Shown piece after piece: positions 1,075 to 49,377 of a stretch of 64,000 nucleotides of DNA. The translations under genes and the position numbers were made by a program. The notes under the pieces are model-generated. The model was not told the origin of the DNA and made no database searches. It saw only the letters and a program-made list of their open reading frames with translations. Every line of letters starts with the position of its first letter. Within the stretch, counting starts at the first letter, position 1. Source of the stretch: Candidatus Omnitrophota bacterium (GTDB lineage Bacteria > Omnitrophota > Gorgyraeia > Tantalellales > Tantalellaceae). The stretch lies in assembly GCA_043811395.1 (NCBI GenBank), contig JBDRNE010000115.1, positions 12,212-76,211 of the forward strand. Reading direction: 5' to 3'.

Positions 1075-1611
1075 ATGGCAAACAAAAAATTCAGAAGGAA
1101 ACGTTATATTATACTTTTGGGGTTTCAGCTCAAATATATTTTGTATATCCTGCTATTTATTTACATTGGTGCGGCAGTTGCCGGATATACCGTTTATTGG
1201 ACAACCTGGGTAACTTTGGGCGAGAAGTTGGCAAATGTGTATCCGCGAAGCAGGCTGATTTATATATTTCATGACGCGAATATGACTCTTCTCATTAGAA
1301 TGTTGATTATTACCCCTATTTTTATTCTTATCGGGATTTTTTTGTCACATAGAATAGCCGGCCCAATCTACAGGATAAGTAAGTATCTTGATGCATTAAA
1401 AGTTGGTGACTATTCACATGATGTAACTTTGAGAAAGAAAGATGAATTAAAAAATTTGGCCGGAAAATTGACGGAATTATGCCGAAAATTGCGTGAAGAC
1501 AAAGAAAAGAATAAGAACATAATAAAAGAAATAGAAGGCTTGCTTGATAAAAGCGAAATCCCTTTTGATGTCTCTGAAAGGATCAAAACAGAAGTGCGCC
1601 GGATTTCTTAA
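1075..1611 (+). CDS. Small membrane protein with two TM helices and a HAMP-like domain, possibly a truncated sensor
   Basis: The ATG at 1075 follows a GGAGGA RBS. Two hydrophobic helices are present, followed by a HAMP-like amphipathic segment (IAGPIYRISKYLDALKVGDYSHDVTLRKKDELKNLAGKL). There is no output domain. The stop codon directly abuts the left inverted repeat of the RAYT element. Confidence 0.55.
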   Translation: MANKKFRRKRYIILLGFQLKYILYILLFIYIGAAVAGYTVYWTTWVTLGEKLANVYPRSRLIYIFHDANMTLLIRMLIITPIFILIGIFLSHRIAGPIYRISKYLDALKVGDYSHDVTLRKKDELKNLAGKLTELCRKLREDKEKNKNIIKEIEGLLDKSEIPFDVSERIKTEVRRIS

Positions 1612-2382
1612 ATAGGGACGTCACCCATTTAATTAAAAAAACAAAACGTAGAATAATCATTTAATCATAGGTCGTCCTCTGGGGCGTGATGTCAGGGGCC
1701 GACCTAATTTATTTTCCAACATTTTAAAAAAAGTTTTATTTCCTAGAGGTTTTCCCAATAAGGTATGTTTGTTAATTGTTTCTATCAATTCTTTTGAAGG
1801 TTCTAGTTTTAGATCTTCTCTCCAGTTTTGGGGGTCCAATACTTTTTTACTTGGTGATAAAGAAATAATTCCTTGTTCGATGTTGAGATGATCTCTCGCA
1901 CTAGACCATTTCCAATCCTCGAGGTTTTTGACAAGTTGTGCCCGTATGGGATTAAGCTCAATATATTGTGTTACAATATAACTATGTTGTTCATCAAGCG
2001 GACAAGAAAAAAAACGACTTTGCCAGAGATGTCCTACTTTTTTATATTTTTTATTGAAATATTGAGTATAACACATTTGGGTATAATTGAATGTCTTGGA
2101 AAAAGAGTCGGCTTGTTTCGGGATAGCTTTAACATGGATGTGGTTAGGCATAAGAGCGTATGAAGAAATATCGAGATAATATTTAGTTTTATGTTTTTCA
2201 AGTAGTGTAAGATATCGGATGTAGTCCTCATCATCAAAAAAAGTGGTAGTTTTATTGTTTCCTCTCTGAGTTATATGATGGGGAACTCCTAAAACAACAA
2301 TGCGTGCAGTTCGAGGCATAATGGCTCCTTTCGTAATTTTAACAAAATAGGTGACGTCCCTATTTATACGTCCCTATTTATA
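1611..2382. mobile_element. IS200/RAYT-like single-gene element bounded by perfect inverted repeats
   Basis: The left repeat AATAGGGACGTCACC (1611-1625) and the right repeat GGTGACGTCCCTATT (2350-2364) are exact reverse complements and bracket a Y1 transposase gene. A 14-bp tandem duplication CGTCCCTATTTATA lies at 2355-2368 and 2369-2382. Confidence 0.7.
1657..2319 (-). CDS. IS200-like / REP-associated tyrosine (Y1, HUH) transposase
   Basis: It carries the HUH-type motif (MPNHIHV) and a downstream region (GHLWQSRFFS) that presumably holds the catalytic Tyr. The ATG at 2319 follows AAGGAG. It is a single gene between inverted repeats. Confidence 0.8.
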   Translation of the reverse strand: MPRTARIVVLGVPHHITQRGNNKTTTFFDDEDYIRYLTLLEKHKTKYYLDISSYALMPNHIHVKAIPKQADSFSKTFNYTQMCYTQYFNKKYKKVGHLWQSRFFSCPLDEQHSYIVTQYIELNPIRAQLVKNLEDWKWSSARDHLNIEQGIISLSPSKKVLDPQNWREDLKLEPSKELIETINKHTLLGKPLGNKTFFKMLENKLGRPLTSRPRGRPMIK

Positions 2383-3910
2383 CCCATAAGTTTTTGTCTA
2401 GAGAACGGTATCCGATTGCCTCGGAAATGTGAGGCGTGTCTATAGTTTCTGAATTTGCCATATCGGCGATAGTTCGTGATATTTTTAGGATTTTGTCATA
2501 TGCTCGTGCGCTAATGCCGAGTTCAAGTATTGCTTTTTTTAGTAATGCTTCAGCTGTCGATGTTAGCGGGCAAAACATTTCAATGTCTTTTTGGGACATA
2601 TAAGCATTATAAGCAGAGGATCTTTTTTTGTTTTTAAAACGATTGTTTTGCAACTGTCGGTTTGCGGTTACCCGTTTTTTTATGTTCTCTGAATTTTCAC
2701 CCGTTCTCTTTTTTGATAAATCTGTGTAATCAAGACGGGGCACTTCAAGGTGTAAATCAATTCTGTCTAAAAGAGGTCCAGATATTTTTGAAAGATAACG
2801 TTGTATCTGGTAAGGTGAACATTGGCATTTTTTTAATTTGTCCGTAAAATAGCCGCATGGGCAGGGGTTCATGGCGGCGATAAGAACAAAACGTGATGGA
2901 TATTGGAGTGAACGCTGAGCTCTTGCTATTGTTATTTTTCCGGATTCAAGGGGTTGGCGCAGAGTTTCTAAGACGTCTCGGCGGAATTCCGGAAACTCAT
3001 CGAGAAAAAGAACTCCGTTATGCGCGAGGCTAATTTCACCTGGAAGCGGGTATGATCCGCCTCCTGCCATTGCCGCGTATGAAATCGTGTGGTGTGGAGA
3101 ACGAAAAGGCCGTTCTCTTATTAAGCCGGAATTTTTTGTTTGTCCGGTTACGCTGTAAATATTAGTTGTTTCGAGCGATTCCTTGAGGGAAAGATCCGGC
3201 AGGATAGAAGGGAACCGTTTTGCCAGCATGCTTTTTCCGGAACCCGGCGGGCCGAGGAGAAGAACATTGTGATTTCCGCTTGCGGCAACTTCAAGCCCAC
3301 GTTTTATATGGTGTTGACCCTTTACATCTTTAAAATCTAATTCGGTTTGAGAATTAGTATTAAAATATGTGTTTTTATTTATAACTGTTTGTGTTAAAGG
3401 TGTGATTTTTTTTAAGTGATCAATTACTTCGCGAAGGTTTCCTGCGCCATATACTGATATGTTATCTATGTTGGCGGCTTCAAGCGCGTTAGCGGTAGGT
3501 AGTATAAATGTTTTAAATTTGGTGTTTAAAGACATGGCTATTGGTAAGGCGCCCCGGAAATGTTTAAGTTTTCCGTTTAGGGAAAGTTCTCCGCAGAACA
3601 ATATGTTGTCAAGTTCTTCCTGTTTAAGCGCGGAAGTGGCTCCAAGTATGCCCAACGCTATTGGCAGGTCAAATCCTACGCCTTCTTTTTTTATGTCAGC
3701 CGGGGAAAGATTAACTGTTATTCTTGTTTCAGGAAAAGCAAATCCTGAATTTTTGATGGCGGAACGAATTCTGTTCCGACTCTCCCTTATTGAAGCATCG
3801 GGAAGGCCTACTACTAAAAAAGAAGGCATACCGTTTGTAACATCTACTTCAACGTCAACAGCCTGAGCGTTTACACCAATGACATATCCGGAATTTACTT
3901 TAGCAAGCAT
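2378..3910 (-). CDS. comM: Mg-chelatase-like AAA+ ATPase YifB/ComM
   Basis: It has a Walker A motif (GPPGSGKS), an LFLDEFPEF Walker B region and a ComM-type C-terminus. The ATG follows AAGGAG. The stop codon lies inside the second copy of the 14-bp tandem repeat. Confidence 0.9.
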   Translation of the reverse strand: MLAKVNSGYVIGVNAQAVDVEVDVTNGMPSFLVVGLPDASIRESRNRIRSAIKNSGFAFPETRITVNLSPADIKKEGVGFDLPIALGILGATSALKQEELDNILFCGELSLNGKLKHFRGALPIAMSLNTKFKTFILPTANALEAANIDNISVYGAGNLREVIDHLKKITPLTQTVINKNTYFNTNSQTELDFKDVKGQHHIKRGLEVAASGNHNVLLLGPPGSGKSMLAKRFPSILPDLSLKESLETTNIYSVTGQTKNSGLIRERPFRSPHHTISYAAMAGGGSYPLPGEISLAHNGVLFLDEFPEFRRDVLETLRQPLESGKITIARAQRSLQYPSRFVLIAAMNPCPCGYFTDKLKKCQCSPYQIQRYLSKISGPLLDRIDLHLEVPRLDYTDLSKKRTGENSENIKKRVTANRQLQNNRFKNKKRSSAYNAYMSQKDIEMFCPLTSTAEALLKKAILELGISARAYDKILKISRTIADMANSETIDTPHISEAIGYRSLDKNLWV

Positions 3911-9426: not shown

Positions 9427-9433
9427 AGAAATT

Positions 9434-9550
9434 GGGGTCAGCCCTTGAAATGTGAAACTTGCTAATTTATTTACCTTAAGTTTCACATTTCAAGGGCTGA
9501 CCCCAAAGTACACTTTTCAAGGGCTGACCCCAAAGTACACCAAAGTACAT
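9434..9550. repeat. Long palindromic repeat element R1: a 27-bp stem hairpin plus tandem partial copies
   Basis: GGGGTCAGCCCTTGAAATGTGAAACTT (9434-9460) pairs with its reverse complement at 9478-9504. The direct repeat CAAGGGCTGACCCCAAAGTACAC occurs at 9491-9513 and 9518-9540. A second copy of the element lies at 39298-39395. Confidence 0.8.
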
Positions 9551-39295: not shown

Positions 39296-39297
39296 AT

Positions 39298-39395
39298 GGG
39301 GTCAGCCCTTGAAATGTGAAACTTAGCATAAATAAATTGTCAAGTTTCACATTTCAAGGGCTGACCCCAAAGCTCAGGGCTGACCCCAAAGCTCC
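39298..39395. repeat. Long palindromic repeat element R2: the second copy of the 27-bp stem hairpin plus tandem partial copies
   Basis: The arms at 39298-39324 and 39342-39368 are identical to those of R1. The loop is the inverse of the R1 loop. The direct repeat GGGCTGACCCCAAAGCTC occurs at 39358-39375 and 39377-39394. Confidence 0.8.
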
Positions 39396-48858: not shown

Positions 48859-49377
48859 ATGAAGAATATTGTTCTTGTGGGTTTTATGGGGACTGGAAAA
48901 ACTATTATTTCTAAAGCGTTGTCCGAGCGTTTAAAAAAAAAGCGTGTTAGTATAGATGAAATGATAGAGCTTCAGGAAGGTAAAAAAATTAGTGATATTT
49001 TTAAAGATCAGGGGGAAGCTTACTTTCGGGTAATAGAAAAAGTTTTGGTCAAAGAAGTATCTCGTAAATCCGATCAAATAGTAGACGCGGGCGGCGGGGT
49101 AGTGTTGGACGCGGAAAATATGAAAAACCTAAAAAGTAACGGGTTTGTGATTTGTCTTTGGGCTGACCCAAAAGTTATTTATGAAAGGACAAAAAAGTAT
49201 AAGCATAGGCCTCTTTTAAAGGTGGAAAGCCCTATGCAAAAAATTGAAGAACTGTTGGAGTTTAGGCGCTCCTTTTATGAAAAATCTGATTTTCATATTG
49301 ATACAACAAATTTAGATATAGATACGATACTGAAAAAGATAGAATTAATTATAACCAAAACCGAATCCAAAAAATAA
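48859..49377 (+). CDS. aroK: Shikimate kinase
   Basis: The P-loop is GFMGTGKT. Confidence 0.9.
   Translation: MKNIVLVGFMGTGKTIISKALSERLKKKRVSIDEMIELQEGKKISDIFKDQGEAYFRVIEKVLVKEVSRKSDQIVDAGGGVVLDAENMKNLKSNGFVICLWADPKVIYERTKKYKHRPLLKVESPMQKIEELLEFRRSFYEKSDFHIDTTNLDIDTILKKIELIITKTESKK

Follow-up and report, generated by a model that had tools for sequence, protein, structure and literature searches.

What kind of genetic element is a lone transposase gene that lies between two other genes and whose flanking repeats run into the stop codons of both? This question is raised by a 64,000-nucleotide stretch of DNA from a Candidatus Omnitrophota bacterium (assembly GCA_043811395.1, contig JBDRNE010000115.1, positions 12,212 to 76,211), hereafter the window, in which a Y1/HUH transposase gene stands between comM and a HAMP-like gene. 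The locus is probably a resident, single-copy cassette, composed of the gene for a subclass 2.1 HUH enzyme and two inverted copies of its cognate 21-nucleotide hairpin. Systems of a domesticated transposase with its repeats are already known but little studied, and the locus is a further example of them, not a classical insertion sequence (IS). What is new about it is that the host belongs to the Omnitrophota, that deletion derivatives are clear, that duplications are anchored in the loop of the hairpin, and that the site next to comM is fixed while the cassette turns over. The locus has the following features.

1609-1646: extended left arm of the inverted repeat, 38 nucleotides, 84% complementary to 2329-2366
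1610-1630, plus strand: left repeat arm on the 3' side of the Y1 gene, a 21-nucleotide imperfect palindrome, AAATAGGGACGTCACCCATTT
1657-2319, minus strand: Y1/HUH transposase gene, 220 amino acids, Pfam Y1_Tnp match
2325-2331, minus strand: ribosome-binding site AAAGGAG, 5 nucleotides before the ATG
2329-2366: extended right arm of the inverted repeat, 38 nucleotides, pairing with 1609-1646
2345-2365, minus strand: right repeat arm on the 5' side of the Y1 gene, AAATAGGGACGTCACCTATTT on the minus strand
2354-2382: tandem duplication of 29 nucleotides, 14 bp twice plus one base (2354-2367, 2368-2381 and one further base)
1075-1611, plus strand: HAMP-like open reading frame, Pfam HAMP match of 18.8 bits, under the cut-off
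2378-3910, minus strand: comM/YifB, TIGR00368 match of 640 bits

Inverted copies of AAATAGGGACGTCACC[C/T]ATTT at 1610-1630 and 2345-2365 bracket the Y1 gene. The sequence-only reading of this DNA, which preceded our analysis, had reported the gene at 1657-2319 on the minus strand and a 15-bp inverted repeat around it, AATAGGGACGTCACC at 1611-1625 with an exact reverse complement at 2350-2364. Both were borne out, and the perfect match is in fact 17 bp long (TAAATAGGGACGTCACC, 1609-1625 against 2350-2366) and continues imperfectly to 38 nucleotides at 84%. The arms had been described as plain inverted repeats; inverted they are, but each is itself an imperfect palindrome of about 21 nucleotides. 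The right arm has a perfect 7-bp stem, AAATAGG/CCTATTT, with the loop GACGTCA. At most one mismatch from AGGGACGTCNCC, the 64-kb window holds 2 matches against 0.19 expected, and since the same arms are kept around orthologues of the gene, a chance origin of the inverted repeat is ruled out. The ribosome-binding site sits in a 28-nucleotide leader, TTTTGTTAAAATTACGAAAGGAGCCATT, that is identical across four genomes (among them L004, L028 and L075). A single copy of the Y1 gene occurs within the window, and the identical protein was found in one genomic context only, in a Candidatus Omnitrophota metagenome-assembled genome (MAG). An Rfam scan of 1300-2700 with E-values up to 1 returned no match.

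The family of the enzyme was examined by profiles, motifs and fold. The 220-residue protein matches Pfam Y1_Tnp at 45 bits and the NCBIfam model of the REP-associated tyrosine transposases (RAYTs; REP, repetitive extragenic palindrome; REP_Tyr_transpos, NF047646, cut-off 80 bits) at 59.4 bits, whereas the NCBIfam IS200/IS605 model (cut-off 55 bits) gives 20.4 bits. In the profile comparison that the sequence-only reading had proposed, the RAYT model is thus ahead and neither cut-off is reached. E. coli TnpA-REP (4ER8) is the only clear sequence match among solved structures (E 3e-6). An AlphaFold2 model built from 116 homologues, with a mean predicted local distance difference test score (pLDDT) of 90, finds its best Foldseek match in the same structure (E 4.9e-8, TM-score 0.70 normalised to the target), followed by the IS608, ISDra2 and IS200 transposases. 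For subclass 2.1, Table 1 of Quentin et al. 2018 (PMC6006769) gives NHVH or NH[YF]H, W[EQ], YIELNP or Y[IV]HLNP, an SS motif in a core extension, a further C-terminal domain and a median length of 238 amino acids. The HuH motif N59-H60-I61-H62 agrees with this pattern (the hydrophobic residue of class 2 being L, V, I, F, Y or M), as do W99-Q100, Y119-I-E-L-N123-P124 and, for the SS-motif core extension, W138-S139-S140. Invariant among the 116 homologues are H60, H62, Q100, Y119, N123 and S139. The tyrosine motif is Y---NP of class 2, unlike Y---Q of IS200. A C-terminal extension of about 80 amino acids follows; residues 140-220 show conservation and form helices in a confident part of the model, and no Pfam domain was detected in them.

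By its motifs, the protein is assigned to TnpA-Y1 subclass 2.1, which Quentin et al. 2018 equate with RAYT Group 1 of Bertels and probably also with the TIRYTs of Di Nocera (PMC6006769). It is not an IS200 transposase, given its model score, its tyrosine motif, the orientation of the ends and the copy number in the available sequence. Neither is it a canonical RAYT, being below the model cut-off and having repeats without a GT[AG]G foot: the hairpin foot is (T)AAAT, and neither arm adjoins GTAG or GTGG. The earlier view of a RAYT-like rather than classical IS200 layout therefore holds in its contrast (59.4 versus 20.4 bits, the 4ER8 match, YIELNP, inverted hairpins and no tnpB) but not as a canonical RAYT. 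A ratio of nonsynonymous to synonymous substitution rates (dN/dS) of about 0.16 against an 88%-identical orthologue indicates that the protein is under purifying selection. We found no biochemistry on subclass 2.1 in the literature searched.

The hairpin is dispersed in relatives of this organism. We scanned a collection of 185,579 species-representative genomes, to which the window's own genome does not belong, and AAATRGGGACGTCWCCYATTT matched 73 loci in about 15 MAGs (Omnitrophota or labelled Planctomycetia, with one match in Geobacteraceae); all but a few of these loci fall in about a dozen Omnitrophota or "Planctomycetia" MAGs. A search for transposase-less copies had been suggested on the basis of the sequence, and such copies thus exist in relatives, although the window itself has no extra one. 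The six richest genomes hold at least 29, 27, 22, 16, 12 and 11 hairpin copies; these numbers are lower bounds, as they were counted at up to 3 mismatches around exact-match seeds in the fetched loci only. Most copies form inverted doublets (plus-then-minus) with a spacing of 8-270 nucleotides. Of 136 copies, 119 (88%) are not in an open frame of 100 codons or more, and 43 (32%) abut a gene end, as both window arms do (a frame end up to 12 nucleotides from the hairpin or up to 6 nucleotides inside it). The position at a stop codon is thus typical for the hairpin family.

Some doublets keep more than the hairpins. The longer ones in JBDRBY and JBDRBG retain about 45 nucleotides of the 5' leader, in which the ribosome-binding site lies, together with about 60 nucleotides of the 3' tail, while L072 (JBDRHE) has at 273-650 a hairpin, the first ~100 codons of the gene and a second hairpin, the make-up of a deletion intermediate. 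On their sequences, these longer doublets and the L072 unit are read as internally deleted derivatives of the gene-bearing unit. JBDRBY contig 5 has, in addition, a second Y1 gene that is truncated after 27 codons (L076:4880-4989, continuing into L013). This truncated gene has a GGGACAG-type repeat of its own, AAAAATAGGGACAGCGACCATTT, that adjoins a GACGTC-type hairpin.

The association of gene and repeats extends to more distant proteins. In a sample of 80 metagenomic relatives with 38-47% protein identity to the window's enzyme, about 70 have inverted repeats on both sides whose core is (A)ATAGGGAC[AG] and which mostly end 30-45 nucleotides before the ATG. In a per-sequence test, 22 of 72 upstream arms had a perfect stem, 5 bp or longer, around a loop beginning with GAC, versus 4.5% of shuffled controls. 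The stems vary in sequence from locus to locus (AAATAGG/CCTATTT, TAAAGG/CCTTTA, AAAGGG/CCCTTT and TAGGG/CCCTA). The window cassette sits in the hairpin-type part of a family whose repeats change with the protein lineage. Many relatives (L084-L165) show TTGACA or CTTGAC, which resemble a -35 element, directly after the inner end of the upstream repeat. The repeat would thus overlap a probable Y1 promoter, from which autoregulation could follow.

The right arm of the window cassette bears the tandem duplication listed above, which consists of the outer half of the 5' repeat arm plus 3 nucleotides of flank. On the inner side the duplication stops within the hairpin loop (minus strand, GGGACG|TC; plus strand, A2354|C2355). 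An identical duplication is present in L001, L002 and L003, one NCBI MAG contig and two independent Logan assemblies of the same organism as the window; it is therefore not an assembly artefact. It is absent from L004 and L028, and no perfect duplication is evident in L005. The sequence-only reading had made the duplication the source of the comM end. The duplication is real and its outer copy does hold the last codon and stop (2378-2383, the stop being 2378-2380), but the end was not created by it. Removing either copy leaves ...TTA TGG GTA TAA at the end of comM, so the stop codon overlapped the foot of the right arm before the duplication arose. The comM stop overlaps the repeat in orthologues as well, with TGG TAA ATGGGG in L004 and AAT TAA ATAGGG in L028. 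With the extra copy, the right arm as a single strand is predicted to fold at -8.5 kcal/mol (z-score -3.7), the left arm at about -4 kcal/mol; a much longer single-strand stem is thus possible than in the plain left arm. A target-site duplication was considered and rejected, as both copies are adjacent on one side, none is present at the other end, and the flank is part of the repeated unit.

Similar duplications recur elsewhere. Among 135 GACGTC-type hairpins, 8 independent copies (the window's included) carry a perfect tandem duplication of 12-17 bp made of outer flank and outer hairpin half, and 7 of the 8 are compatible with the inner boundary GGGACG|TC. L057 has two copies with a mirror event that starts at the same boundary. 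We surveyed about 0.9 Mb of fetched loci for perfect tandem duplications of 12-20 bp; 12 of 23 and 14 of 26 of them lie at GGGAC sites, which cover 3-3.6% of bases. Comparison of the copies shows a fixed inner and a variable outer boundary, and the junction microhomology is 1 nucleotide (only the window copy was inspected). A fixed inner boundary, a variable outer boundary and almost no microhomology fit a nick at a specific site, after which a short stretch would be synthesised by priming and re-joined. For TnpA-REP, Ton-Hoang et al. proposed such a nick, extend and re-join model (PMC3333891, Fig. 7B).

The order comM, hairpin, Y1 unit is seen in five genomes. Orthologues with 88% identity in L004 (JBDRBY) and 65% identity in L005 (JBDRBG) lie directly after comM, behind the same hairpin. 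In L028 (CAYPYT) and L075 (CAZGOZ), two MAGs labelled Planctomycetia, a 76%-identical comM is followed by the hairpin and the 28-nucleotide leader, and then the contig ends. The HAMP-like protein has an orthologue in a second CAYPYT locus, L071 (69.5% identity over 174 of 178 residues), the gene of which also abuts a hairpin copy. There was no evidence for a loss of comM or HAMP-like sequence to the element, which the sequence-only reading had raised: over its whole length comM can be aligned to TIGR00368 and to its orthologues, and 174 of 178 residues of the HAMP-like protein align.

The cassette is much younger than the flanking comM. Between the window and JBDRBY, the Y1 genes share 89% nucleotide identity with a synonymous rate (dS) of 0.37 and a nonsynonymous rate (dN) of 0.06, whereas the comM genes share 67%, with dS saturated and dN at 0.26. 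The block of high similarity (1657-2366 of the window against L004:5955-6663) starts at the hairpin. Against JBDRBG, the Y1 gene and comM have diverged about equally. Most of the 3' hairpin has been deleted from L004 (TGAttgttct|ctatttaag), and what remains of the end of the HAMP-like gene comes next. The short elements of JBDRBY bear a leader of the JBDRBG type, not that of the present JBDRBY gene, which fits a recent replacement of the resident cassette. The Y1 unit has been exchanged between lineages while holding the same position.

Other relatives were seen in further contexts. The identical protein P0007, a 64%-identity relative, occurs in two upstream contexts (L006:5860-6700 and L007:5860-6700) that differ from a breakpoint at the exact outer edge of its hairpin, AATTAGGGACAACTCCCTA; the two loci share a downstream flank that is tRNA-gene-like in appearance. 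The two contexts are due either to rearrangement at a copy of the repeat or to assembly that joined sequences through it. In L110 (43% identity), comM is followed by a repeat and then by the Y1 gene (L110:1-300). The order in L084 (Auribacterota, 51% identity) is gene, relBE-like pair, dprA, comM and yraN (L084:4001-8135), and in L154 a C-terminal comM fragment lies about 200 nucleotides upstream of the Y1 gene (L154:1767-2884). Such comM adjacency in distant relatives could reflect a target preference or a functional link to transformation genes.

The resident cassette may work as follows. On the model of E. coli TnpA-REP and IS608, the enzyme would bind the hairpin on single-stranded DNA; Y119 would nick it, H60, H62 and N123 would hold the metal ion, and the strands would be re-joined. 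Short transposase-less inverted doublets with the same hairpins might then be mobilised or amplified in trans, and the Y1 gene would keep its place next to comM and the HAMP-like gene, whose stop codons both fall in the T-AAAT foot of a hairpin. The duplication of 14 bp would most likely be a scar of enzyme activity in this genome, left by a loop nick at GGGACG|TC, short primed re-synthesis and re-joining. A wider proposal is advanced here only tentatively and is open to considerable doubt: that the subclass 2.1 "REP-less" enzymes run a REPIN-like system, in which loop-anchored duplications of 10-20 bp are in vivo footprints of nicking, extension and re-joining that give the cleavage site, and that the cassette at the 3' end of comM is replaced by an enzyme-mediated, non-homologous route.

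Among described systems, the TIRYTs or TIRtrons resemble the locus in many respects. Their genes have terminal inverted repeats, many with GGGGWSAS, and these repeats are moderately abundant, sometimes self-complementary and arranged in dimers (Di Nocera et al. 2013, PMC3733652). Shared with them are the protein traits (NH[VI]H, W[EQ], YIELNP, the SS tail and a length of 220-240 amino acids that includes a C-terminal extension), terminal inverted repeats whose distance from the gene is fairly constant, and repeats that are moderately abundant and often dimeric. TIRYT genes are low in copy number, and the window holds one copy of its Y1 gene in 64 kb. The core GGGAC[AG] resembles GGGGWSAS, and (A/G)GGGACGT of the window fits 6 of the 8 consensus positions. 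Flanking 16-mers of Group 1 have about 12 genome-wide occurrences (Bertels et al. 2017, PMC5581495). Unlike the TIRYT repeats, that of the window is a self-complementary 21-mer with a GACGTC loop and so behaves like a REP or REPIN. In the literature searched, we did not find derivatives that keep leader and tail, loop-anchored duplications or a fixed position after comM described, nor Omnitrophota mentioned together with REPs.

The E. coli REPtron and the Pseudomonas REPIN-RAYT systems (subclasses 2.2 and 2.5; PMC3333891, PMC5581495), whose mode of working the locus appears to follow, have in common with it a single-copy Y1 gene bracketed by inverted hairpins, and with its relatives the presence of such hairpins as extragenic inverted doublets. 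E. coli TnpA-REP is further linked to the window protein by 4ER8, the closest solved structure, and by the Y---NP motif, and the amplification model proposed for it fits the duplications of the window family. In contrast to these systems, the window protein is under the NCBIfam RAYT cut-off and has the extra C-terminal domain of about 80 amino acids. The copy number differs too: the six richest relatives each gave at least 11-29 copies (an exact-match-seeded lower bound), whereas more than 100 are usual for REPs (PMC2817692). The candidate nick of the window lies in the loop, whereas that of the REPtron is at C|T beside the hairpin.

Several observations weigh against a resident cassette with cognate hairpins. 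The isolated hairpin is thermodynamically weak: as single-stranded DNA the left arm folds at -3.9 kcal/mol with a z-score of -0.5 versus shuffles, and folding alone gives the hairpin no support; what supports it is its conservation and the occurrence of stems with a different sequence at each locus. RNAalifold gave no consensus structure on 46 aligned upstream arms, in an alignment whose 3' arms are out of register because the loop lengths differ by 1-2 nucleotides. No further hairpin copy occurs in the 64-kb window, even with the 15-mer at up to 3 mismatches, and as the window's own genome is outside the scan, dispersal is seen only in relatives. Quentin et al. 2018 found no REPs near subclass 2.1 genes (PMC6006769). 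Canonical REPs have a GT[AG]G foot, which the window repeats do not, and the RAYT model cut-off is missed (59.4 versus 80 bits). The candidate cleavage site is a position proposed from duplication boundaries, and in relatives of the GGGACAG type these scatter over two zones, at offsets 1-3 and 5-7 from GGGAC. Moreover, a cassette much younger than its flanks is not a purely stationary, vertically inherited gene.

This last point bears on an autonomous IS of the IS200/IS605 type, in which a 0.76-kb unit would transpose itself, the hairpins would be its ends and the doublets its miniature derivatives. Such an element would share with the cassette the HUH/Y1 fold, hairpin ends and internally deleted derivatives, in which both ends are retained. 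The block of similarity to L004, which starts at a repeat arm and is far younger than comM, would have moved or been exchanged as a unit; P0007 stands in two upstream contexts with the breakpoint exactly at the repeat; and among the large RAYT groups none is more IS-like than Group 1 (Bertels et al., PMC5581495). We nevertheless regard an autonomous IS as unlikely. The exact protein is known from one context, the gene is single-copy in the available sequence, and the insertion point beside comM is common to five genomes. The IS200 model reaches only 20.4 bits against a cut-off of 55, and the motif is Y---NP and not Y---Q (PMC6006769). The ends are inverted, unlike the left and right ends of IS608, which have the same orientation, and no tnpB-like open reading frame adjoins the Y1 gene in the available sequence. 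The family is also virtually absent from 2.9 million viral contigs. These contigs gave 2 distant relatives and no repeat match, and carriage of the cassette by phages was rejected as unlikely.

The constant neighbourhood might instead point to a host-recruited enzyme that acts on single-stranded DNA and serves natural transformation or recombination alongside ComM (and DprA), the hairpins being fixed local recognition or regulatory sites and the dispersed copies a by-product. The purifying selection on the protein would suit such a role, as would comM linkage beyond the close clade in L110, L084 (1.5 kb from dprA-comM-yraN) and L154, and the TTGACA-like hexamer that places a likely promoter across the repeat in many relatives. 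Against this, comM is nearby in 3 of 83 distant loci, of which only about 35-41 have more than 2 kb of flank per side; most relatives are in unrelated contexts, linkage in the close clade may be simple shared ancestry, and the doublets and deletion derivatives are left without explanation. A role of this kind appears quite improbable to us. Least of all do we credit the possibility that the palindromes merely end genes, as ordinary terminator or mRNA-stabilising hairpins do, and that the duplication is a replication slip, both independent of the enzyme; this seems very remote. Palindromes are hot spots for replication errors, and both arms abut stop codons, as do 32% of the copies in relatives. 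A scan of the locus, however, found no terminator-like site with a T-run, and promoter-like sites were no commoner than in shuffled sequence. In about 70 of 80 distant relatives the Y1 gene has the arms on either side, and their sequence changes with the protein lineage. Little or no junction microhomology (1 nucleotide, in the window copy only) and boundaries fixed on the inner and variable on the outer side fit a nick better than slippage.

Taken as a resident cassette with cognate hairpins, the locus bears on Group 1 or subclass 2.1. No branch of the RAYT-like enzymes is larger or less well understood. At least one lineage of this subclass has hairpin repeats that spread as doublets and deletion derivatives, and these repeats sit on gene ends with which they share stop codons. 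The fixed duplication boundary points to a testable cleavage position, with a defined 21-nucleotide substrate and a predicted nick site. REPIN-like systems would thereby be extended to the Omnitrophota. To our knowledge, this phylum is known only from metagenomes.

On the left side of the cassette, the sequence-only reading had placed the repeat at the TAA of a HAMP protein gene. The stop codon (1609-1611) does overlap the first bases, or foot, of the left arm, but the HAMP match reaches only 18.8 bits against a Pfam cut-off of 25. The product is a 178-residue two-helix membrane protein without a kinase or output domain.

Nor is the cassette the only mobile element in the window, as had been supposed. 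A second family of inverted doublets has arms of 28-29 nucleotides, TTGGGGTCAGCCCTTGAAATGTGAAACTT, with a 17-nucleotide spacer, and each doublet lies just after a gene end.

9432-9506: second-family doublet, in the stretch 9432-9550 of this family
39297-39369: second-family doublet, in the stretch 39297-39394 of this family
49160-49170: partial copy of the second family

At most one mismatch from GGGGTCAGCCC, the window has 7 matches against 0.2 expected. No cognate Y1 gene for this family was found within the window. Its GGGGTCAG fits the TIRYT consensus GGGGWSAS, and the echoes are tandem repeats of the outer arm, an imperfect one (27 nucleotides, 87%) at 9478-9535 and one of 19 bp present twice at 39357-39394. 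For the window as a whole, the GC skew is positive in every 2-kb bin (about +0.14 to +0.30), and so strong and uniform a skew places the entire stretch on one replichore arm. Both comM and the Y1 gene run on the strand opposite to the GC-skew strand.

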